Shown one piece after another: positions 2,621-38,381 of a stretch of DNA of 38,381 nucleotides. The notes beneath the pieces were generated by a model. That model made no database searches. It was given only the letters and a program-made list of their open reading frames with translations, and was not told the origin of the DNA. Within the stretch, counting starts at the first letter, position 1, and each line of letters begins with the position of its first letter. The DNA comes from a virus (taxonomy: Duplodnaviria > Heunggongvirae > Uroviricota > Caudoviricetes): the IMG/VR virus record IMGVR_UViG_2909303794_000008. One strand, written 5' to 3'. A program made the translations under genes and the position numbers.

Positions 2621-2732
2621 AACTGAAGTTGCCCTGAAAATGAAATTTTTTTGCACAACCGCAGAACTTTTCCGCAGGGCATCAGTCTTAATTAGTGCCA
2701 CTGCTTTTCTTTGATGTCCCCATTTTGTGGAG

Positions 2733-2775
2733 CCCATCAACCCCGCCATTTCGGTTCAAGGTTGATGGGTTTTTT
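2733..2775 (+). terminator. rho-independent terminator (probably ybjL, host side of prophage junction)
   Basis: perfect 10-bp stem cccatcaacc(2733-2742)/ggttgatggg(2760-2769) followed by T6 (2770-2775); coordinates anchored on ybjL and ogr stop codons. Confidence 0.55.
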
Positions 2776-2855
2776 GTTGCCTGAAATTTAAGCTGTTTAA
2801 AATCATGATGTTAGAAACACTGTTTTTTAACGATGGCGACAAAATGGCGGCAGCG

Positions 2856-24953: not shown

Positions 24954-25271
24954 TTATATACCACATACAAAATTGATCTTAACGCTTTTATCAACAACAA
25001 GCAGAGAAGTGCCAACAGACTTAATAAATCCCAGTTCATACTCTTCTGAATGCGTCATTGTAATAATATGAACAGGAACAAATAAATCAAGCTCCCGCAG
25101 CTTTCGCTTCAATAATAAACCATCGACACAATCACCTATCACAAGCATATCAATATCATTTGCATCGCAAAAACTCTTTAATGCTGACCCAAATACATAT
25201 ACATCCACCATATATAAACTATGATGGATAATAACATCACAGATCGATTCAATCGTATGTTTAAAATTCAC
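24954..25271 (-). CDS. minimal nucleotidyltransferase (Pol-beta superfamily, MNT-like)
   Basis: 105 aa with the GS-X9-DID motif (VYVFGSALKSFCDANDIDMLVIG); GTG start overlapping the upstream TAG stop by 1 nt; AT-rich. Confidence 0.6.
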   Translation of the reverse strand: MNFKHTIESICDVIIHHSLYMVDVYVFGSALKSFCDANDIDMLVIGDCVDGLLLKRKLRELDLFVPVHIITMTHSEEYELGFIKSVGTSLLVVDKSVKINFVCGI

Positions 25272-25930
25272 TACCGTGAAATTCTTCGTAATAAATCACC
25301 CAACTTGTAAAGCTCCACCCCGATACTTTGAGCAGCCTCTTTTGCCTGAGTCGTCAATCGTCCATTAGGATTGGAGGAAAAAACAACATCACAATTGCCA
25401 TGCAACCCTATCGCATCTCTTACAGAACCCGCTGTCATATCATAATCATTCGCAGCGATAATAACTAAGTCCGCCAAGCCACGTCTTTTAAGTCTATATT
25501 TTTTGTTGGTTTCTCGCTCTACAGAGCTTACATGTGAATGTTGATTGAACACTCTATTTATAAACAAATGCTCTTTATCAAGATGCTCAAGCGGATTATT
25601 AGCTCTTAAAGAAGATGCAATATGCCCAAATGAACCCACTCCTATTTTCTTTTGTTCTAGTAATCTCATTGCATCACCAGAGATAAATTCAACACCTCCC
25701 TTGACTGATAGAAAATCAATTTTTTTATTGTCTAGGTATTCATTTATCTCAGGACATGTTATCCGGCCAGTATTGATTGCCCCGATCAAATAGGTGTCAC
25801 CCTGTGTAGTATTAATCACTAAAGTACCATCACCTATCACCTCTATATTTTCGACACATTTATTTTCTTGTAATTTTCCTGCCATCCATGAAATATAGCC
25901 TTCACTCGCATTTATGCTCATTGGATTCAT
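25271..25930 (-). CDS. hypothetical protein, middle gene of three-gene cargo operon
   Basis: 219 aa; ATGA overlap with the upstream gene and 1-nt overlap with the downstream gene; no domain recognised with confidence (weak Rx6H HEPN-like motif RANNPLEH). Confidence 0.5.
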   Translation of the reverse strand: MNPMSINASEGYISWMAGKLQENKCVENIEVIGDGTLVINTTQGDTYLIGAINTGRITCPEINEYLDNKKIDFLSVKGGVEFISGDAMRLLEQKKIGVGSFGHIASSLRANNPLEHLDKEHLFINRVFNQHSHVSSVERETNKKYRLKRRGLADLVIIAANDYDMTAGSVRDAIGLHGNCDVVFSSNPNGRLTTQAKEAAQSIGVELYKLGDLLRRISR

Positions 25931-26622
25931 CCTATAAATAGTTCAGATGCAGCTTCTGGAAACCTACTACCATTAGCATCGGTTAAGCCCAAATGTTTTG
26001 ATTCAAAGTCATCTATATGAACACAAAGCTTTGAAAAAACATTCTTCTCATCTTCACTCATGAGGTGATAGTTTTGTTCAACCAGTCGCTGTACTTTTCT
26101 ATTGTTGGGTAAGATATGAGATTGTACTTTTCTTAACCATACTTCTGCATTTGGATTTTCAGGGTCAACGCTGTTCTCTTGGGTTGGTCCATATGTTACA
26201 AAAATGGTATTGTTTTCTCTGAAGTATTTTTCTAACTCCTGTCTAACAGATTCTCGATTGTCATATGTTTTAACACCAAAGGTTGCATTTATTTTATCAA
26301 TATGGCCGTTTTTCCAAGAACGGATAATTTCATCAGTAAAATGTTCCTCTGCCTTATCAATTGTCGTATGGCAATTAGCACATAGAAGAATAATGTTGTC
26401 AAAATGACCTCTCTGCTCATCAGTTAGATCAGCATTGGTTCTAGGTCCATTATCAATGGCACTAAAAATGTGAGCAAGTTCTCCAATTGTTATATTTTTG
26501 TCGCCAGCATCAACAAACAAAGGTTGCAAACATTGTGGATTTTGGCAAAAGCCACCTGAGCTGGCAAAAAGCCGTCTAACTGTATTAGCGTTTGGAGAAG
26601 CTTTTCCCCTACTGCAAGCCAT
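25927..26622 (-). CDS. HNH endonuclease-domain protein
   Basis: 231 aa; CQNPQC...GELAHI...N...LLCANCH (HNH with zinc-binding cysteines); ATG at 26622 with AAGG SD. Confidence 0.65.
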   Translation of the reverse strand: MACSRGKASPNANTVRRLFASSGGFCQNPQCLQPLFVDAGDKNITIGELAHIFSAIDNGPRTNADLTDEQRGHFDNIILLCANCHTTIDKAEEHFTDEIIRSWKNGHIDKINATFGVKTYDNRESVRQELEKYFRENNTIFVTYGPTQENSVDPENPNAEVWLRKVQSHILPNNRKVQRLVEQNYHLMSEDEKNVFSKLCVHIDDFESKHLGLTDANGSRFPEAASELFIG

Positions 26623-26710
26623 GAACTAACCTTAAAAGTATAGAAATTAGGATGTTAATTTATTACTGAACAACCCTATAAGCAAGCTTGCTAATTGTGG
26701 TGAGCGCGCG

Positions 26711-26729
26711 CTCGTATCCCCGCCACGCC
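26711..26729 (-). other. putative cos (cohesive-end) site
   Basis: minus strand reads GGCGTGGCGGGGATACGAG followed by CGCGCGCTCAC; the first 13 nt match the P2/186 cohesive end as I recall it (GGCG[A/T]GGCGGGGAAAGCA[C/T]); lies in the intergenic gap between the two cargo clusters. Confidence 0.35.
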
Positions 26730-26914
26730 TGCCCGCTTTATGTAGCGGTTTTCATGCAGGCGCATGATCTACGCAAAATCCCACCAGTTCTGGCGTGCCT
26801 TAGCAAAAACGATCCGCAAACGATCATGCGATCTCATGCGGCATAGTCATGCACTTACGGGGGAAGTGAAATCCCGTAACCGAATGACCGCTTGAAAAAC
26901 AAAACTCTCGTTTT

Positions 26915-26949
26915 TATAAAGCACAAAGTCCGCTTTGAGCAAAGCGGAC
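26915..26949 (-). terminator. rho-independent terminator downstream of the KAP NTPase gene
   Basis: stem gtccgcttt(26928-26936)/aaagcggac(26941-26949) followed on the minus strand by TTTGTGCTTTAT. Confidence 0.5.
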
Positions 26950-27014
26950 GTTAATAATTTTACTGACTATCCCTAGTACTTCTAATAATATTGCCTATGT
27001 TAATCAACAAAAAG

Positions 27015-28907
27015 TTAATCAGTTCCCTCAGTAAAGAATTTGATTGCGCTAGTTAGTACATAGTCAATAAAAAACTTTACGTGAAAAACCTGAAAGGAGT
27101 TATTGGCTGCGTTTTGAGTGAAATCTACAGCTATCTCTTTTAGGTTAATCAACCAGTTGTATTCTTCGGTCAGTCTGGTTCTAGCATCCCCATCAGAATA
27201 ACGATTCCGCAAGCTAAATGCCAGTTTCCTCATGAGGACTGGGTCAAGTTTCCTATAGCTTTCAATGAAAACTTCAGGAGGAACCAAGTGTAAAAAAGGC
27301 ACGTTATGAAGATTTAACTGCCTATTATTAGAATGACTCAATTCAGATACAAACGATAAGTTTCCCCTTTGCAACTCATCGCTGAACTGCAACGCAAATT
27401 CCGGAATTGATTCATCAAACCGTTTCTTCTTCGCTATCTCAATATGCTCAATAATGAGTTTGAATTCATCGCTATCCCTGTCAAGAAAACCAAAGCCACG
27501 CCATGCCCTTAATTCGTTATAATGCGTTTGCGCATATTCCTTATGTATATCTTCAGCTCTAAGTCTATTATAATAATTATTTATATTCTGTTTTGTCTCA
27601 TTTATGAGATCATGAACATCATCTGTTGTTAGACCTTCTTTCGCCATGTCCAGCAAAATACTCGCGGTCATCAGGAGTTCACCTAAGGAAGTGATCTTAC
27701 CTGAAAATAGATTATCCTTGGCAATGGCGTACTGCTCATTAAGCATAGTTTCATTAAGTTCTCGATAGTTCCACAAATACTCCCATGCTTGGGCATCGGT
27801 GCTTCTAAAAAATCGCGTAATATCCAACTGAGCGAGAAGTTCACTCGTTACCTTTCCATCACAGATTAGCTCCCTCCAGTACGCACCATCCAGTAACTTC
27901 TCGGTTAATACAGGAGATGAATATTTCTCGACGATCATGTCATACTTAGTTTTGGTACGCTCTTTACCTAAAAACATACCATAATTAACATTGCTGATTG
28001 AATCGAAATCCTCGTAGTTAAGGTTCCCTCCCCGGTACTCTATCGAGAAAATTAACAACTGCTGGAAAAATACCCTCATAAAATCGTCGTTGCTGACATA
28101 TTTATTTCCCAAAAGGGAAATGATGCGTTGTACATCAAGAAAGAACTGCCTCAAGTGTCTTAGATTATTATATTTCGCCGACACATAGATGTCTTCTATG
28201 GCCTGCATATCTTCTTTAAATATATTAGCAACGTGTAAACTGCTAATTACGCCCAAAAAAACATTACAAGCACTATGTAAATCTGACGTTACTTCAAATG
28301 TTTTACCAACAAGCTTTTCTTTTGTTCTCATGTATTCGCTGCTAGATTTCTCGTCATCATTATTTATTCGCTTTTCTCTATTGATTATTTCTTCTTCATT
28401 GGCAACCAAGATCGCTTTGTATCCGTTTACTTCTACAAAGTGGTTTATATATCCAAATAAAATTGGTAAATCTATACCAGCTCTCTCGATATCATCAAAG
28501 ACCAGCACAAAACCATCTGGTTTTCTACTAAAATCGTTAAGATTAATGGTGGGAACATTGGTATTGACATCAACGTCAGATTTATTATCGCCATTGAGAT
28601 CGATCTTGAAAGTAGCCTTAAGCGTATTTTTTAGTACATTTGCACCAAAGATAAGGGCTTTGTTTGATAGGACAGGATGAAGTTGACGATAGAACTCATC
28701 TTCAATCTGCTTAATAGAGTTGACGCCATACAAACTCACTTTTAGAAATTTAAACTCTGAATTCTTCTGCTTATATTCTTCAAGAACTTGTTCAATGAAC
28801 CAAGTTTTACCTGATCCCCAAGCACCTTTAAGCATAATGGCGTATTGAGGTTCAGTTGTAAGGCTAAGGTAATATTCTATATAGTCTTTGATGTACGTAT
28901 TGTTCAT
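27015..28907 (-). CDS. KAP-family P-loop NTPase
   Basis: Walker A GAWGSGKT near the N-terminus and Walker B-like VLVFDDIER about 100 aa later; start set to ATG 28907 (the track start 28958 is TTG); AT-rich. Confidence 0.7.
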   Translation of the reverse strand: MNNTYIKDYIEYYLSLTTEPQYAIMLKGAWGSGKTWFIEQVLEEYKQKNSEFKFLKVSLYGVNSIKQIEDEFYRQLHPVLSNKALIFGANVLKNTLKATFKIDLNGDNKSDVDVNTNVPTINLNDFSRKPDGFVLVFDDIERAGIDLPILFGYINHFVEVNGYKAILVANEEEIINREKRINNDDEKSSSEYMRTKEKLVGKTFEVTSDLHSACNVFLGVISSLHVANIFKEDMQAIEDIYVSAKYNNLRHLRQFFLDVQRIISLLGNKYVSNDDFMRVFFQQLLIFSIEYRGGNLNYEDFDSISNVNYGMFLGKERTKTKYDMIVEKYSSPVLTEKLLDGAYWRELICDGKVTSELLAQLDITRFFRSTDAQAWEYLWNYRELNETMLNEQYAIAKDNLFSGKITSLGELLMTASILLDMAKEGLTTDDVHDLINETKQNINNYYNRLRAEDIHKEYAQTHYNELRAWRGFGFLDRDSDEFKLIIEHIEIAKKKRFDESIPEFALQFSDELQRGNLSFVSELSHSNNRQLNLHNVPFLHLVPPEVFIESYRKLDPVLMRKLAFSLRNRYSDGDARTRLTEEYNWLINLKEIAVDFTQNAANNSFQVFHVKFFIDYVLTSAIKFFTEGTD

Positions 28908-29221
28908 TTTTAGTCCATTTTGATAAAATACATAAACATAGATGGTAAGTAGAGCCAAAGGCCAACTATGGAAAATTCAATCGGTAGTGTACATTGTAAG
29001 GTTATTATTAGTAAATTTTATAGAAATGCCCATAATCTTACAAAATTCAGATTATCCGTTGCGAATTAGTCTGCCATTCGTTAATTAACGAAAGTTAGCA
29101 GAAGAAACGTTTGCATCTTGCACAAAGCAGACGATCATTTATCAAAATGACCTTACACCTTATTTCACTCGTTGCCCAAACTAGCCCCCATCAGAATGAA
29201 TCCTCCTGGGGGCAACGTTTC

Positions 29222-29807: not shown

Positions 29808-32222
29808 TTAATACAGGTTCCGCCACTTATCATCTTCCTGCAAACGCTGGTTCCAATAGAAGATACGCAGGCCTGCTCCTGACGGAATACTGCCGCCGCG
29901 AAGGAGTAAATCGACCTCTTTCTCGCTGCCATCAAATCCTCTGGATTTCAGTTCATAGACGAGCTGCTGTCGTTGATGGTCTGTAATTCGCTGTTTGTAG
30001 TCTCTACGTCGTTTCGGTTTCACCAGACGTAACCTTGCAGCCAGTTCCCGGCGCTCCTTTTTGTTCATACTGTGCAGGTAATCGTGCAACTCCTTGTCAT
30101 CCATGCGGGTAAAGTCCGTTCTGGGGTCCCCATCAGCTGATTTATCTTTCTCCTGTTGGTTCAAATTTTCAGCAAGGGGACAGTTATTGCCACGAGTCCA
30201 AGGGGCGCAAGCGCCCTGGTCGGCTGCCGCCTCCTGAACATCAACGGCCTTACGAACCATTTTCCACTTCACGGCATGAGTGCAGATCTTGCCCTCTGCA
30301 ATAGGTGACCAGATGCCATAAATACGAATGCCGTGATCGCCATAGGCGGTCGGCTCTTCGTTGATTTCATAAGCGGTTCTGATGAGGTGATATTTGCGGG
30401 GAACCAGTACGCCGCCCTGCTTCATGATGTAGGTGGCAAAACAACCAGCATCAGCAGCAGCCAGGATGGCATCAAGGCGTGGGTTATCCAGTACCGGCGC
30501 ACCTGCTTTTTTGTCCCCCTGTTGCCTTGCCGCCTGACCAGCCAGCAATCGCAGTTCACGGTAAGCCTGACGCCCCGGAATGCCAAAGAAGCGGAATTGC
30601 TGAACACGATGCAGAGACGCCCAGGCATTAACGTATTCAGCATTATCACGCAGGGATTTCCCCGTTTCCTTGCTGATCTCGCCAGCCAGACCACGCCCGT
30701 CAATGTTCTTACTGATGTATTTCGCGATGTAGCTTGTTGGCGTTCCTTTGCGCGGGTTAATCAACTCAGACTTAAAGCGCGGCCCAGTGTTATTGCCCAG
30801 CTCCTCGCGGTCTTCACGGATGGCAAACTTACGCAGTAATGCAGTGATGGCACGGCGGTCTTTTTTGCGCATGAAACACAACAGGTGCCAGTGAACTGTG
30901 CCGTCATGATGCGGCTCAGCCACCCGCACGCCATACCAGCGCAACCCGGCTTTGTGCATCGCCTTACGAAATGCAGCAAACATGCCGACCAGATAATCGC
31001 TGCTTTGTCTTACCGTCGCGTTTGTCCAGGTCGGGTTTGGTCTGCCGTTATTGAGCGTGGAATGGAAACGTGACGGACAGGTGATGGTGTAGAAAACGGC
31101 GCAGTCACCGCGCATTTCCGCGATAAGCTCCAGACCTTTAACACAGGCCATCATCTCATTGCGGCGATGCGCCGGGTTGCTGCTGCTGGCGTTTACCACA
31201 TCCTCCATGTCCAGCGTGTCGCCGTCTTCGTTCACCAGTTCATGAGAACGGAAAAACTCCAGCGACTTACGGCGCTGCTCACGTTTATGCATCACGGCTT
31301 CATAGCTGACATAGGGAGATGCTTTTTTGCTGACCAGGCAGACAGCACGCAACTGCTCTTCCCGCCATTCGCAACGCATCTTCCATAATTTCCGATACCA
31401 CCAGTCGGCGCACAACATACGCGCCAGCGAACCCGGAATGAGTTCATAGGGCACGGGTTTACGGCGGTTTCTTTTCCGACGGAGTTGCTCAAACGCAGGA
31501 GGGATTACATCCAGACGCAGGGTTTCCGCTGCCACCTTTTCCCATGTCTTGCGGATTTCTTCTGGCTTAACGTCATCGGTGGCATACAAATCACCACAAG
31601 CTGCATCAAGGCACATGCTCATATGCGCGGCAACAAGGGTAGACAGGCGCTTCACCTGATCCTGACTCATTTCAGGCAGGATCAGCAGGCCGTCCAGCCC
31701 TTCATGGCTTGCCATAAAGCGAAAAGAAGTGGATAGCTGACTCTCGCGTACATGCTCCAGTCGTTCCAGACATGGCTTAATCGTCTCACGCAAATAGCGG
31801 GAATAAGCCTTTGGCCTGCCCAGGCTGCTGAAGTATTCAATACGTTGCATCAGCGGCTTGCTGATATGGGAAGGCTGGGCGTTGACGTCCGCCAGAATGA
31901 CCATATCCGGATTAAAACGCTGCTGCTCATGCGCCAGCTTTGCCCGACTAATGAGCTTATCCTGCTCGATTTCGCGCTGGACAGGATCACGGGATTCATT
32001 AAAGAAATAACGCTCCCAGACCTGATCACTCAGCGCCTCACGGCGCAGCTGTTCCTGCTCGTTATCGGCAGCGTACAGAGTGATCAGGTTTGAAAGCGCA
32101 GAAACCGGCGCAACTTCCGCCGGGTCCAGATAAGGGTTAATGGCCTTTTTCGGGCTGCTCCATGAGAATGCTGCTGCGACCTCGTTAAAGCCGCTGCAGT
32201 TGTTCATATCAGCATGGCTCAT
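29808..32222 (-). CDS. A: replication initiation endonuclease A (rolling-circle Rep)
   Basis: 804 aa; HWH metal-binding motif and YIAKYISKN tyrosine motif; ATGA overlap with dam. Confidence 0.9.
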
Positions 32223-33076
32223 GCACGCACTCCGTACACGGCAGAACTATCCACGCCACGCGAAGGATCAAATCCCACCCAGCAGCGCGGCCCGGAAACA
32301 GCGATGATTTCTGTTGCTGATTTACACTCGCCAGCTGCCACACCGATGCTGCGTTTTACCTTGATATAGTGGTGAGTAAAATTGCGATACAGCGAACGAA
32401 TCAGGGATGTGTCACTGTTAGAAACAATGACCGGATGTCCTTCAGATGATCGATGTTCAAGAACGGATGCCAGGTGATACTGGTCATCTTCAGTGAAACC
32501 ATCAGTGTGATAGCCGGAAAACGTACCGTCATAAGGCGGATCGCAATACACCACATCCCCCGCCTTCAACATCGCCAGCGTTTCATCAAAGCTGGCGCAG
32601 ATAAACGTTGCCCGCTGGGCTTTTTCTGCAAATGCGCGAATTTCTTTTTCAGGGAAATACGGTTTTTTATAATTCCCGTAGGGAATGTTGAAATGTCCGC
32701 TCTTGTTATAACGACATAACCCACGGTAACCGTGACGATTGAGATACAGGAAATATACTGCTTTCATGAAATCAGTAATTTCAGATGAGTAATTAAACTC
32801 CTGCCTTATGTTGTAATAAGCCACCTCCCTGTTTGCTTCCTCAAATAAGACTCTGGCACGAGATATAAATGATTCGCAATCAGCGGCAATCTTTTTATAG
32901 AGGTTGATTAAATCAGGATTAATATCAGCAACCAGATAGCTGGGGTAATCCGTCGCCATCATCACAGCACAGGAACCCGCGAAAGGTTCAACCAGTCGCG
33001 GGCCAGCAGGAAGGTGTTTTTTCAGTTCGGACATAATGGCGGTTTTATTACCCGCCCATTTCAGGATGGTGCTCAT
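32219..33076 (-). CDS. dam: DNA adenine methyltransferase (Dam-like, GATC type)
   Basis: LKWAGNK, EPFAGS (motif I) and DPPY (motif IV); start set to ATG 33076 (ATGA overlap with the upstream gene). Confidence 0.85.
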
Positions 33077-33300
33077 ACAGCACCTCCGTTGTAATGTTTG
33101 CCTTTCAGCTCTGCGATTTCCTGGCAGGTAATGCAAAGCTGCACTCCCGGAATGGCGCGGCGTCGTGCTGGCGGAATTGGCGCTTCACATTCAATACAAA
33201 GCACGCGAGACACGCCCGGTGTTTTGGCACGGGCAGCACGAATATGGCGCTGGCGTTCTTCTTCAACGCGCTGCTGTACGAGATCCATTGCATCAGCCAT
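33073..33300 (-). CDS. TraR/DksA-family C4 zinc-finger protein
   Basis: 75 aa; CIECEAPIPPARRRAIPGVQLCITCQ. Confidence 0.6.
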   Translation of the reverse strand: MADAMDLVQQRVEEERQRHIRAARAKTPGVSRVLCIECEAPIPPARRRAIPGVQLCITCQEIAELKGKHYNGGAV

Positions 33301-34113: not shown

Positions 34114-34623
34114 TCACAGCAAACCGAATGAAGCACCGAGGCCAGTCACGGTATCAACTGCACTCGCCATCGCAGGATTAGCCTGTAAACGGGCCTGCAA
34201 TGAAACAGCGGCCAGCGCCATCAGTCGTGTTACAGAGTTAATGCTGCTGATAGCATCACGACGACCTGCACTGGTTTTTACATCGCCAGATACCGCACCT
34301 GCAGCAACACGCCCGATCTCTGCGGTTGCACTCATGACATAATGCGGCAGTTTCTCTTTTGCCACCTCATTAATCGGTACACATGGCAGGCAGTGAATCT
34401 GTGCCAGAAAGCCATCTACCAGCGTTGAATCTTCAGTCAGATCGGTAAGCAACCAGATTTCTGGTGCGGTTAATAAATGAGGTTGAGCTGGGTTCAGCTT
34501 GTTCCGCAGAATCTGTACATTCATGCCTGCACGTTCTGCCAGTCGCACCAGGTTGTGGCGCAGTGCGAATGCACGACAGGCTTCGTCAAAATGTGGATGT
34601 TTGGAAACTTGGTAATCAAACAT
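34114..34623 (-). CDS. B: replication protein B (helicase-loader-like)
   Basis: start set to [12 protein letters not shown], giving 169 aa; P2 gpB-like. Confidence 0.8.
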
Positions 34624-34655
34624 AGTCGACACCCCTGATGTATCCCAAAATGGAA

Positions 34656-34877
34656 CTAGTTGAATACAACATTGCAATCAGTAAGTGCATCAACGGTAAG
34701 AGCAGCAAGGTTGATCATTACCTTTTCTCTTTTCTTGTCTTTCCGAAGGCGATGGCGAGGGATGCGACCATCAGCCAGCATATCGTTGATGGTGTCGATA
34801 GAAAGACCAGTAAGTTCGCTATAACGCTCAATTGTGACGTGTGGCGTATTCAGAGTTATTGAAATGTTAGGGGTCAT
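34656..34877 (-). CDS. Apl/Cox-like excisionase/early regulator
   Basis: 73 aa from ATG 34877 with AGGAGA SD; first gene of the early operon, divergent from cI. Confidence 0.5.
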
Positions 34878-34972
34878 GATGCAACATCTCCTATTGGCTT
34901 GTGGTGAGCCTGTAGTAATCGTGACAAGTACCCAAACGGGGACAAAATTGATACTAGGATCGCAAAAGAGAT

Positions 34973-35569
34973 ATGTCAACATCAAAGTACCCAAATGAGA
35001 TCAAAATAAATCCCAATAAAGGTGGTAAGGCTGCGATTGAGCGATTAGTCGAAGCTTATGGCTTTACGACACGACAGGCTTTAGCTGATCACTTGGAAGT
35101 ATCAAAAAGCACTCTGGCGAACAGGTATTTGCGGGATACGTTTCCTGCAGACTGGATAATCCAATGTGCTCTTGAAACAGGAACCTCACTGAAATGGTTA
35201 ACCACCGGGCAAGGCCTTAAGCAAAGCTCGCTGACAGCAGCTACAGAAGAGCTTGCCAAGTTTCGCCTTACCGCAGGCAAAATGATTGAAGATGGTTCAT
35301 ATGTCTTCGATTCATCATTTCTTCCTGCAAATCTTTCATCACCAATTGTTATTCAGGATGGGCTCGTCACATACATTTGTGATCAAAAATTTTCTGAAGT
35401 ACTTGATGGGCACTGGTTAATCAACATCGACGGAACCTATTCCATTCGAAAAATCACAAAGCTTCCAAAAGGTATGATTAAAATTACAAGTACAGAGAAT
35501 AGCTTTGAATGTGCATTTTCTGATATTGAAGTAGTTGCTTGTATAAGAAGTACAATAGTTTCAAATTAA
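34973..35569 (+). CDS. cI: CI immunity repressor (phage 186 CI type)
   Basis: 198 aa; N-terminal EAYGF...LANRY...CALETG...WL.TG and C-terminal WLINIDGTYSIRKITKLP resemble 186 CI. Confidence 0.8.
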   Translation: MSTSKYPNEIKINPNKGGKAAIERLVEAYGFTTRQALADHLEVSKSTLANRYLRDTFPADWIIQCALETGTSLKWLTTGQGLKQSSLTAATEELAKFRLTAGKMIEDGSYVFDSSFLPANLSSPIVIQDGLVTYICDQKFSEVLDGHWLINIDGTYSIRKITKLPKGMIKITSTENSFECAFSDIEVVACIRSTIVSN

Positions 35570-35589
35570 TATAGTAAAAGGATTTAAAA

Positions 35590-37266
35590 ATGAATTCATT
35601 TTCCATCGTTATATTCTTATTAGCATTTCTCGCCCCCATTCTAGCTGTAATATTATTTAAGCAAAGCAAAAAACATAAAGCGGCTATAGATACCTTGACA
35701 GCTAACAACATAGCCCTTTCCAACCAACTGAAAGAAAATCAAGAAGAATTAGCACAGACTGTACGAGATCTATCAGAGCTTGAAGGACGAGCTGCACCAT
35801 TATGGCAATACGTAGAATTGCACAGCGCAGTGATGGAAGCAGAGAATAAGATAAAAAATGCAGACTCAATAGCCAGGCAAAAAATAGAAGAAGCCCAAAT
35901 AAAGGCTGCTAAGACAGTAAACGAAGCAAATTATCAAGCTCAGATAAAAATAAGCAACGCTAATAGCGAAGCTATAGCAATTACTAAAGACGCTCGCGAT
36001 GCACGCCTGAAAGCTAAAGAACGTCTTGATAATGCCAATAGTAAAGCAAATGAGCTGATCTCAAATGCTAATGACAATGCAGTGAAAATTATTTCCGATG
36101 CAGAAGAAAGAGCAAAAGAGATTGCTGGTTCAGCATATGAAGCTAAAGAGTTTGCAGAAAAATATGAAGCAGTTGCCAAATCAATGAAAAATAAAATTGA
36201 AGGTTATGGTGATGAATGGATCATCCCTAACCGTAGCGTTCTCGATGAATTGGCAGAAAATTATGAGTTTACAGATGCAGGCAAGGAATTACAAAAAGCC
36301 AGGGAGTTAACAAAATCATTAATAAAAACTAATAAAGCTGCTTCGTGTGATTATGTTGAACAAAACAGGCGTAATACTGCTATCAACTTTGTTTTAGATG
36401 CCTTCAATGGAAGAGTTGACAGTATTTTATCAAAAGTCAAACACAACAATTTTGGAAAACTTTCCCAAGAGATAAAAGATGCGTTTCAACTTGTAAATTA
36501 CAATGGTTCTGCCTTTAGGTCCGCAAAAATAAGTGACATCTATCTTCAAGCTCGACTCAACGAGCTAAAATGGGGTGTTGCAGTTAATGAAATTATGCTC
36601 GAAGAAAAAGAAGAGCAAAGAAGGATTAAAGAACAACTTCGTGAAGAGGAAAGAGCTCGTAGGGAGTATGAAAAAGCGATAAAAGAAGCTGAAAAAGAAG
36701 AGAAAGCTATTCAGCAAGCTATAAATAAAGCAACAAAAGAGCTTATGCTTGCAAATGAAGAACAACGCTTAGCTTTAGAGCAAAAAATAGCTGAACTACA
36801 GTTAAAATATGAAGAAGCTGAAGCTAAAAACCAACGAGCTATTTCTATGGCTCAACAAACTAGATCAGGCCACGTTTATATAATTAGTAATATTGGCTCA
36901 TTTGGCGAAGATGTATATAAAATTGGAATGACACGCCGCCTTGAACCACTTGATCGTGTTCGTGAACTCGGTGATGCTAGTGTTCCTTTTTCGTTCGATG
37001 TTCATGCGATGATTTATAGTGATGATGCACCATCATTAGAAAATCATCTGCATAAAGTCTTCAACGAAAAACAGGTCAATAAAATTAACTCACGAAAAGA
37101 GTTTTTCAACGTAAATATTAAAGAAATTAAGTCTGTTATTGAAGATATGAACATCAACGCACAATGGACAATGTTTGCGGAAGCGAAAGAATATAGAGAG
37201 TCACTGGCGATTGAGCAAGAGCGCAAAGCAGCAACTTCCGCCAACGATGAACTGCATGTTGCTTAG
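35590..37266 (+). CDS. membrane-anchored coiled-coil protein with C-terminal T5orf172 (GIY-YIG-like) domain; DUF4041-like architecture
   Basis: 558 aa; N-terminal TM helix, long coiled coils with repeated NANS/KANE motifs, C-terminal GHVYIISN...VYKIGMTRRL...ENHLH...EFF motif; AT-rich; AAAGGA SD 20 bp after the cI stop. Confidence 0.6.
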   Translation: MNSFSIVIFLLAFLAPILAVILFKQSKKHKAAIDTLTANNIALSNQLKENQEELAQTVRDLSELEGRAAPLWQYVELHSAVMEAENKIKNADSIARQKIEEAQIKAAKTVNEANYQAQIKISNANSEAIAITKDARDARLKAKERLDNANSKANELISNANDNAVKIISDAEERAKEIAGSAYEAKEFAEKYEAVAKSMKNKIEGYGDEWIIPNRSVLDELAENYEFTDAGKELQKARELTKSLIKTNKAASCDYVEQNRRNTAINFVLDAFNGRVDSILSKVKHNNFGKLSQEIKDAFQLVNYNGSAFRSAKISDIYLQARLNELKWGVAVNEIMLEEKEEQRRIKEQLREEERARREYEKAIKEAEKEEKAIQQAINKATKELMLANEEQRLALEQKIAELQLKYEEAEAKNQRAISMAQQTRSGHVYIISNIGSFGEDVYKIGMTRRLEPLDRVRELGDASVPFSFDVHAMIYSDDAPSLENHLHKVFNEKQVNKINSRKEFFNVNIKEIKSVIEDMNINAQWTMFAEAKEYRESLAIEQERKAATSANDELHVA

Positions 37267-37324
37267 CAATGTATGTTTCATAGTAATCACACATTGATTA
37301 CTGGTTGTATATACAGTTAAATTT

Positions 37325-37349
37325 AGCCCTCTGATATGAGGGCTTTTTT
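37325..37349 (+). terminator. rho-independent terminator abutting the int start codon
   Basis: stem agccctc(37325-37331)/gagggct(37338-37344), loop tgatat, T6 at 37344-37349, then ATG of int at 37350. Confidence 0.6.
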
Positions 37350-38381
37350 ATGGCAGTACGAAAACTCACCACAGGAAAATGGCTTTGCGAATGTTACCCC
37401 GCCGGACGTAGTGGACGTCGTGTACGTAAACAATTCGCCACCAAAGGCGAAGCTCTGGCTTTTGAGCGTCACACGATGGAAGAAACCGAAGCAAAGCCCT
37501 GGCTGGGTGAATCAGTGGATCGTCGAACACTGAAAGACGTGGTTGAACTATGGTTCAAACTACATGGTAAATCTCTGACAGCTGGGCAGCATGTCTATGA
37601 CAAATTGCTGTTGATGGTTGACGCTCTGGGCAATCCCCTTGCAACCGATCTCACCTCTAAAATGTTTGCCCACTATCGAGATAAACGTCTGACAGGAGAG
37701 ATCTACTTCAGCGAAAAATGGAAGAAAGGAGCAAGCCCGGTCACCATTAACCTGGAGCAAAGCTATCTAAGTAGTGTTTTTAGCGAACTATCCCGCCTGG
37801 GCGAATGGTCGTATCCGAACCCACTGGAGAACATGCGAAAATTCACCATCGCAGAAAAAGAGATGGCATGGCTTACCCATGAGCAGATTGTTGAATTGCT
37901 GGCTGATTGCAAACGTCAGGACCCAATTCTGGCACTGGTAGTTAAGATATGCTTAAGCACAGGCGCACGTTGGCGTGAAGCCGTAAATCTTACCCGCTCA
38001 CAGGTGACCAAATACCGAATTACCTTTGTAAGAACGAAGGGGAAGAAAAACAGAAGCATCCCTATCAGTAAAGAGCTTTACGAAGAGATCATGGCGCTTG
38101 ATGGGTTCAATTTCTTTACAGACTGCTATTTTCAATTTTTATCCGTGATGGAAAAAACGTCTATCGTGCTCCCTCGCGGTCAACTGACACACGTTCTGCG
38201 CCATACGTTTGCGGCGCACTTCATGATGTCGGGTGGAAATATCCTGGCCTTACAAAAAATTCTCGGGCATCACGATATAAAAATGACTATGCGTTACGCA
38301 CATCTGGCACCGGATCACCTGGAAACTGCATTACGGTTTAATCCGCTGGCAACACTACCAACATCAATAGCAAGTTTTTGA
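37350..38381 (+). CDS. int: tyrosine integrase (P2 Int-like)
   Basis: 343 aa; C-terminal catalytic region HVLRHTFA...LGHHDIKMTMRYAHL; stop at window end. Confidence 0.95.
   Translation: MAVRKLTTGKWLCECYPAGRSGRRVRKQFATKGEALAFERHTMEETEAKPWLGESVDRRTLKDVVELWFKLHGKSLTAGQHVYDKLLLMVDALGNPLATDLTSKMFAHYRDKRLTGEIYFSEKWKKGASPVTINLEQSYLSSVFSELSRLGEWSYPNPLENMRKFTIAEKEMAWLTHEQIVELLADCKRQDPILALVVKICLSTGARWREAVNLTRSQVTKYRITFVRTKGKKNRSIPISKELYEEIMALDGFNFFTDCYFQFLSVMEKTSIVLPRGQLTHVLRHTFAAHFMMSGGNILALQKILGHHDIKMTMRYAHLAPDHLETALRFNPLATLPTSIASF

Follow-up and report, generated by a model that had tools for sequence, protein, structure and literature searches.

A SNIPE (PD-Lambda-1) family gene between the cI repressor and the integrase of a P2/186-type Escherichia coli prophage

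The viral record IMGVR_UViG_2909303794_000008 (IMG/VR; 38,381 nucleotides, the whole of which is called the window below) carries an AT-rich open reading frame (ORF) between its cI repressor and integrase genes, running from an ATG start through 558 codons and a stop (positions 35590–37266, plus strand). Judged by its sequence, the encoded protein is a member of the SNIPE (PD-Lambda-1) family of anti-phage defence proteins. The best explanation of what was observed, namely the sequence, the domain architecture, the conserved catalytic and basic residues, the nuclease-domain fold, the cargo status and the gene linkage, is very probably a SNIPE-type membrane-tethered nuclease that would cut incoming siphovirus DNA and be expressed in lysogens. 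The SNIPE family, its mechanism and even the name of this exact protein are already public, so that the finding as such is already known. The residual interest lies in an N-terminal variant of the family with a lysine (K327) at the position of W257 of the reference protein, and in a cassette-like linkage between cI allele and cargo.

Family assignment, domain architecture and fold

A first-pass annotation, made from the sequence alone, had proposed a single-gene defence protein and left its family unnamed. The PADLOC model of PD-Lambda-1, PDLC03976, supplies the name with a full-length match (E = 4e-120, aa 116–550 against profile positions 37–481 of 491), and the second PD-Lambda-1 model of this collection, PDLC03977, follows at 4e-116. 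In PHROGs the protein is assigned to phrog_1847 (E = 4e-132). RefSeq WP_023150405.1 is 100% identical to it, and such proteins in E. coli are named there 'DUF4041 domain-containing' or 'SNIPE associated domain-containing protein'. The DUF4041–T5orf172 architecture suspected earlier was recovered by profile searches against Pfam, with matches to DUF4041 (E = 3e-12, aa 267–322, nt 36388–36555), T5orf172 (E = 9e-17, aa 427–520) and MUG113 (E = 1.6e-19, aa 443–520), all well over the gathering scores.

PD-Lambda-1 came from a functional screen of E. coli and was experimentally validated (Vassallo 2022, PMC9519451); it was later renamed SNIPE and its mechanism explained (Saxton 2026, Nature 2026, PMC13190303). 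The 500-aa 'PD-lambda-1' protein of phage PhiR26_1 was taken as the reference SNIPE, since its length matches RCP76574.1 of ECOR26 (the same protein as XSB42081.1) and since it carries every residue mutated in PMC13190303 (E223, N250, L253, W257, E264, K305, I308, T319 and E414). BLASTP aligned the two proteins with 49% identity over 293 aa (E = 6e-77, aa 265–555 here against 196–487). Both share a transmembrane (TM) helix with a basic cytoplasmic flank, a helical stalk, DUF4041, a helical linker and a C-terminal GIY-YIG/T5orf172 domain, whose motifs are near-identical, the catalytic glutamate included (E484 here, E414 in the reference); both are also single-gene systems on temperate phages. 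The window protein differs in its length of 558 aa, with the domains shifted by 70 residues, in its first ~200–264 residues, which show no detectable similarity to the reference beyond the TM helix and basic residues, and in K327. The carriers differ as well: the gene described here lies inside the lysogenic transcription unit of a 186/P2-type myovirus, whereas that of the reference stands as a lone gene on the opposite strand, with ren and rha on either side, in a lambdoid phage.

The GIY-YIG-type nuclease domain (T5orf172/MUG113) occupies codons 426–525 (36865–37164, plus strand) and was delimited by Pfam, BLASTP and Foldseek. Its motifs stand at residues 427 (GHVYII), 442 (VYKIG), 447 (MTRR), 484 (ENHLH) and 504 (EFF), and the codon of E484, which BLASTP aligns with the catalytic E414 of SNIPE, lies at 37039–37041 on the plus strand. 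Among close homologues, G427-H-V-Y430, Y443-K-I-G446, R449/R450, E484 and N497 are invariant. In an alignment of 40 diverse relatives (27–52% identity), G427, Y430, G446, R449, E484 and N497 are kept in 32–34 of the ~35 sequences having a residue there, E484 itself in 32 of 34.

The structure was predicted with AlphaFold2 (AF2) from the 40 diverse sequences, which gave a mean predicted local distance difference test score (pLDDT) of 83.3; an earlier run on 20 close homologues was poor (pLDDT 54.5) and was not used. The modelled C-terminal domain is beta/alpha in the order beta-beta-alpha-beta-alpha. A Foldseek search of predicted viral structures returned 40 matches at E ≤ 1e-3, almost all of them T5orf172, BRO C-terminal or GIY-YIG proteins, superposing locally at ~2 Å over 95–105 residues. 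In its predicted structure the C-terminal domain thus has the T5orf172 fold, as its motifs had led the first-pass annotation to expect.

Upstream of the nuclease, a long charged alpha-helical linker spans codons 336–425 (36595–36864, plus strand; AF2 helices 316–387 and 390–425) and aligns with the linker of the reference SNIPE. It is preceded by an extended DUF4041 domain at codons 205–335 (36202–36594, plus strand), defined by the Pfam core, by conservation and by a pLDDT of ~90 or more; the model places a compact helical domain at residues 218–310. The conserved domain reaches well upstream of the 56-aa Pfam model, with near-invariant residues at aa 171–309 of the diverse alignment. Eleven basic positions of DUF4041 (238, 242, 260, 261, 275, 282, 284, 310, 313, 322 and 327) are conserved, meaning Lys or Arg in at least 75% of the 40 diverse members.

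The N-terminal part begins with a TM helix at codons 4–23 (35599–35658, plus strand), which hydropathy identifies as the sole strongly hydrophobic 19-mer of the protein (Kyte-Doolittle 2.99). It is followed directly by the basic stretch KQSKKHK and is predicted to run N-out, C-in; a TM-like segment was present in 37 of 40 diverse subfamily members, and among SNIPE homologues at large ~66% have 1–2 TM helices. Behind it stands a helical, coiled-coil-like stalk (codons 24–204; 35659–36201, plus strand) without BLASTP similarity to the reference SNIPE, modelled as helices 2–74, 79–179 and 181–204. With the long helical stretch at 316–425, it accounts for the two coiled-coil regions noted previously, and the repeat motifs NANS (residues 123 and 148) and KANE (152) are present as described.

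This part of the protein is also its most variable. Pairwise identity falls to 0.58 at aa 24–60, compared with at least 0.91 at aa 121–525. No significant Pfam or NCBIfam domain was found in aa 1–264, and an exhaustive search with this segment returned 321 representative clusters. The idea that these 264 residues form a portable adapter placed on varied effectors was rejected: DUF4041 was present in 39 of 40 long matches and T5orf172 in 32 of 40, which assigns the N-terminal module to one SNIPE subfamily. Proteins of Synechococcus phages (51.5% identical over aa 35–541) and Marinitoga viruses (55% over aa 145–553; records PP438427.1, OM868080.1, KP836356.2 and OZ018341.1 for both groups) are closer to the window protein over most of its length than is the reference SNIPE of E. 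coli, so the subfamily is spread far outside the enterobacteria.

The length of the ORF at 37% GC, its pattern of selection and its more than 7,900 homologues show that it is more than a chance reading frame. Between alleles ~6% apart in DNA, the ratio of nonsynonymous to synonymous polymorphism (pN/pS) was 0.01–0.29 across the ORF, and only 0.01–0.02 in the DUF4041–nuclease part, which is under strong purifying selection. Codons 1–81 reached 0.19–0.29, about tenfold more, a value that still indicates that they are translated. This bears on the start site, as some databases hold a 477-aa form beginning at M82. The long form is favoured because Met1 and the hydrophobic segment are kept across genera, the Shine-Dalgarno (SD) spacing fits, a TM helix is present in distant relatives, and codons 1–81 show the pN/pS just given.

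Proposed mode of action and competing explanations

The published work describes SNIPE as a single-pass inner-membrane protein whose DUF4041 domain binds both DNA and the siphovirus tape-measure protein, to which crosslinking is reported, and whose GIY-YIG domain, with E414 as catalytic residue, cleaves siphovirus DNA during injection (PMC13190303). By homology, the window protein would work in the same way. Its TM helix would anchor the nuclease in the membrane, and the long helical stalk would lead to DUF4041, the counterpart of the domain that binds DNA and tape-measure protein in the reference. The C-terminal GIY-YIG/T5orf172 domain, with E484 as the putative catalytic residue, would then cut phage DNA while it is being injected, and the membrane tether would keep the nuclease off the chromosome and the resident prophage. 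Co-transcription with cI from the lysogenic promoter would make the product constitutive in lysogens. The discussion of PMC13190303 assigns Zorya and Kiwa, too, a presumed site of action at the inner membrane during genome injection; they differ in being unrelated multi-gene systems with other sensors and effectors, and the 558-aa protein had no PADLOC match to either.

The carrier is itself a 186/P2-type myovirus, and the nuclease is expected to be harmless to it, because the reference SNIPE spares resident prophage DNA and every myovirus tested of the BASEL panel. In the published experiments SNIPE was without effect on myoviruses, podoviruses, plasmid transformation and the induction of a resident prophage, and no BASEL myovirus was affected (PMC13190303).

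The point at which the protein docks may be a different matter. SNIPE associates with ManYZ, and its N-terminal region was proposed as the contact (PMC13190303); the window protein, with ~200 membrane-proximal residues that bear no relation to those of the reference, should not be assumed to share this association. The authors of the SNIPE study regard the N-terminal region as one that diversifies and may set specificity (PMC13190303), a view with which the fast N-terminal evolution seen here, both in pN/pS and in the identity at aa 24–60, agrees. Since this region is unrelated to the reference and the fastest-evolving part of the protein, the phage range of the 558-aa subfamily may differ from that of the reference SNIPE. 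A further-reaching proposal would have this enterobacterial subfamily dock at an entry route other than ManYZ and exclude other siphoviruses, with cargo and cI exchanged as one cassette; we hold this extended picture to be possible, if somewhat short of an even chance. Its docking element rests on the unrelated, fast-evolving membrane-proximal region and on the lysine at the W257 position, a site at which the change W257R in the reference strengthened binding of the Bas14 tape measure (PMC13190303).

An abortive mode of action, in which infection would release or activate the nuclease, host and phage DNA would be degraded together and the cell would die, appears improbable. It draws on the behaviour of TM-deleted SNIPE, which attaches to the nucleoid, causes double-strand breaks and proves toxic (PMC13190303), and on the difference between the N-terminal region of this subfamily and that of the reference. 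The intact reference, however, defends directly, with cells surviving a high multiplicity of infection and the nuclease remaining at the membrane (PMC13190303), and the segment from DUF4041 through the linker to the nuclease is 49% identical to it, much more so in the nuclease domain.

Slightly less credible still is a non-catalytic role, in which T5orf172 would serve as a DNA-binding module and the protein would stop DNA from entering or replicating, with no cleavage, as a regulator or a superinfection-exclusion factor. Annotations indeed often call T5orf172 a 'DNA-binding domain', and BRO-type proteins are numerous among the structural neighbours. Yet the subfamily conserves the GIY-YIG catalytic positions, among them the glutamate that corresponds to E414, and in the reference the exchange E414A abolishes defence, while labelled phage DNA is cleaved by SNIPE (PMC13190303).

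The GenBank records of phages KP12 and vB_EcoM-813R9 use the label 'chromosome segregation ATPase', and DivIVA/Wag31 and SMC coiled coils gave weak matches below threshold. A reading of the protein as such an SMC-like ATPase, or as some other coiled-coil protein with a structural or housekeeping role, is effectively refuted: no Walker A motif ([AG]xxxxGK[ST]) occurs anywhere in the 558 residues, NCBIfam matches reach only 15–23 bits against cut-offs of 260–729 (SMC_prok_A, 15.5 against 729), and the specific domains are DUF4041 and T5orf172.

The repressor–integrase slot as a cargo site

The gene stands between a 186-type cI repressor of 198 aa (34973–35569, plus strand; Pfam Phage_CI_repr 8e-32 and Phage_CI_C 4e-27), 33% identical to CI of 186 (E = 4e-35), and a tyrosine integrase of 343 aa (37350–38381, plus strand; Pfam Int_N 3e-32 and Phage_integrase 7e-22; PHROG 1), at whose stop codon the window ends. 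On the other side of cI lies a CP76-type cII gene (34114–34677, minus strand; Pfam Phage_CP76 1e-41), the activator of the divergent early operon, whose presence identifies the phage as 186-like. Phage 186 has its cI directly adjoining int, and the 115 bp that separate repressor and int in P2 hold no gene, as had been pointed out for P2 beforehand; relative to both, the ORF is an insertion because neither has a gene between repressor and integrase. Its GC content is 0.369 (0.27 at third codon positions) against 0.504 for the window, and the fall in GC starts already within the 3' part of cI, upstream of the ORF. Foreign base composition, absence from 186 and P2, and the presence of alternative cargos behind the same integrase support the status of the gene as cargo, in line with the first-pass annotation.

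To survey the slot, 80 viral contigs (L009–L088) with an integrase at least 98% identical were compared. Across these loci identity is 86–100% for cII and 44–100% for the cI alleles; between cI and int lie 401–2,634 bp. At least 11 alternative cargo sets were found, with GC contents of 0.31–0.37 and all co-oriented with cI and int. The commonest occupant, at ~42 loci, is a 63-aa protein (e.g., L009:5621–5812) with a signal-peptide-like N-terminus and six cysteine residues (MLGKVFFVVLSCSLLL...), sometimes found beside PDC-S20; it had no Pfam or PADLOC match. As further occupants that are known or candidate defence systems, PADLOC identified an Old homologue (9e-235, at L072) and PDC-S20, PDC-M18A/B and PDC-M11A/B; slot proteins of 323/324, 488, 349+201 and 354 aa matched no known families. 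SNIPE occupies 16 of the 80 loci, always with a cI allele at least 95% identical.

Each cargo type is linked to its own cI allele. Similarity between the DNA of the cassettes spans cII, the operator and the cI N-terminal domain, is lost at ~35200–35225 and returns at 37267–37291, after the cargo stop. Between cassette types the N-terminal domain of cI is 57–71% identical and the C-terminal domain 31–43%, a single exception reaching 77%. As part of the further-reaching proposal given above, cI alleles, their C-terminal domains in particular, may swap together with the defence cargo as one cassette between the cII/operator side and the structured spacer before int. If this is true, immunity type and anti-phage cargo would be inherited together.

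Classic defence hotspots of P2-like phages occur in the interval from gpA to the portal gene and among the tail genes (Z/fun) (Rousset 2022, PMC9122126; Vassallo 2022, PMC9519451; NAR 2026, PMC13586616; Egorov 2024, preprint). Like these and like P2 old/tin, the slot described here holds AT-rich lysogenic-conversion cargo of P2-like prophages that would exclude other phages, and it can even house an Old homologue, as the locus mentioned above illustrates. It differs in its position between repressor and integrase rather than at gpA–portal or Z/fun, and as a defence hotspot it was previously known only coarsely.

The cI stop codon ends at 35569, leaving a 20-nt spacer before the ATG at 35590, within which an SD-like AAGGA (35578–35582, plus strand; read from the sequence) precedes the start by 7 nt; the placement, AT-richness and own SD reported at first reading thus agree with the measured values. 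A consensus scan found no promoter above background, and a terminator scan no terminator-like site, between cI and the ORF. A promoter of the defence gene's own was rejected, as the 351 nt upstream contain a single 8/12 match, which does not exceed the background rate inside the ORF. The annotated lysogenic operon of 186 consists of pL and pE followed by cI and int, and a promoter-like GTGACA-16-CAAAAT (34921–34948, plus strand; consensus scan) is a candidate counterpart of pL, a role suggested by the 186 layout. Given the shared strand, the 20-nt gap, the lack of a promoter or terminator in between and the analogy with the 186 operon, co-transcription of the defence gene with cI from the lysogenic promoter is the most economical and most likely reading.

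Downstream, the 83-nt spacer before int (37267–37349) is conserved backbone, the same after every cargo type. It opens with inverted repeat 1, a hairpin (AATGTATG...CACACATT; 37268–37295, plus strand) located directly after the cargo stop, with the sequence ATGTATG-N-CATACAT; 15 alleles retain its 8-bp stem, one compensatory change included. Many alleles carry in this spacer a strong promoter-like site (TTGACA-16-TAAAAT); its counterpart in the window is weaker. A GC-rich hairpin (37325–37344) with a T-run, found by the terminator scan, extends to the int ATG (37325–37349, plus strand); it pairs in all allelic forms, with a compensatory C>T/G>A pair in L076, and its 3' arm (GAGGG; GGAGGG in other alleles) provides the sole SD-like motif of int. 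Folding of the spacer RNA gave −29.7 kcal/mol (z = −4.0), and Rfam held no RNA family near the cI–ORF–int locus. The notion that the hairpin arrived with the cargo was rejected, as it is conserved before int whatever the cargo. The element may serve to terminate or attenuate transcription or to sequester the SD, and int may be partly uncoupled from the cI–cargo transcript. Of the earlier description as an insertion in a cI–int operon, the location of the gene between cI and int stands, while 'operon' may be an oversimplification in view of the conserved terminator-like hairpin before int.

Distribution, prophage context and significance

Of 5,426 complete E. coli genomes, 164–165 carry the gene, in each case as a single chromosomal copy, and all 164 genomes with the full gene hold the whole 3.4-kb cI–gene–int block. 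This integrase type is carried by ~1,134 E. coli genomes, which places SNIPE in ~14% of slots. Beyond E. coli, the 558-aa form is present in Citrobacter, Salmonella, Klebsiella, Enterobacter and others with at least 82% identity, and the cI–gene–int block is also found in Klebsiella phage KP12 (OM835953.1) and Escherichia phage vB_EcoM-813R9 (ON470620.1). Both of these records mislabel the SNIPE homologue as 'chromosome segregation ATPase'. The 813R9 record also holds ~13 kb of E. coli chromosomal genes (artP...ybjT, rcdA onward), and KP12 is filed under Vequintavirinae despite its P2/186-type genome.

The window itself reads from the host genes ybjM and ybjL and the small RNA gene rybB (2700–2778, plus strand; Rfam RF00110, 105 bits), which marks the left prophage end just before ogr, through a complete P2/186-type prophage to the int stop. 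The phage probably integrated into the region between ybjL and rcdA, at the rybB 3' end. Decayed relatives were seen as well. In E. coli SCU-118 (L004, 2906–7312) a stub retains ogr, a truncated cII, an apl-like gene, cI, SNIPE and int, through a deletion that joins window positions ~3225 and ~34364; in E. coli E308 (L003) the prophage with a 100%-identical gene has several pseudogenised structural genes. Preferential retention of cI–SNIPE–int in decayed stubs was dropped as a general claim, with the SCU-118 junction present in only 7 complete genomes.

Further candidate defence genes lie in the gpA–portal hotspot of the same prophage (window 25271–28958, minus strand): a 646-aa KAP-family NTPase (PADLOC PDC-S49, 5e-160), a 230-aa HNH-like protein (PDC-M68A, 2.5e-29) and a 218-aa protein without a match. 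An orphan Dam-like DNA adenine methyltransferase (32219–33136, minus strand; PADLOC oMTase, 3.6e-112) is encoded in the early operon beside the replication gene and may protect the phage from restriction.

Together, our results place a recently explained form of immunity, in which viral DNA is cut at the membrane on entry, on common P2/186-type prophages of E. coli, at a position where, by analogy with 186, the nuclease would be produced as long as the repressor is. They also correct the 'chromosome segregation ATPase' labels of two phage records. The added value is modest and consists in a fine-scale description of the repressor–integrase slot as a defence hotspot. The divergent N-terminus of the subfamily could further be used to test whether this region sets the phage specificity of SNIPE.

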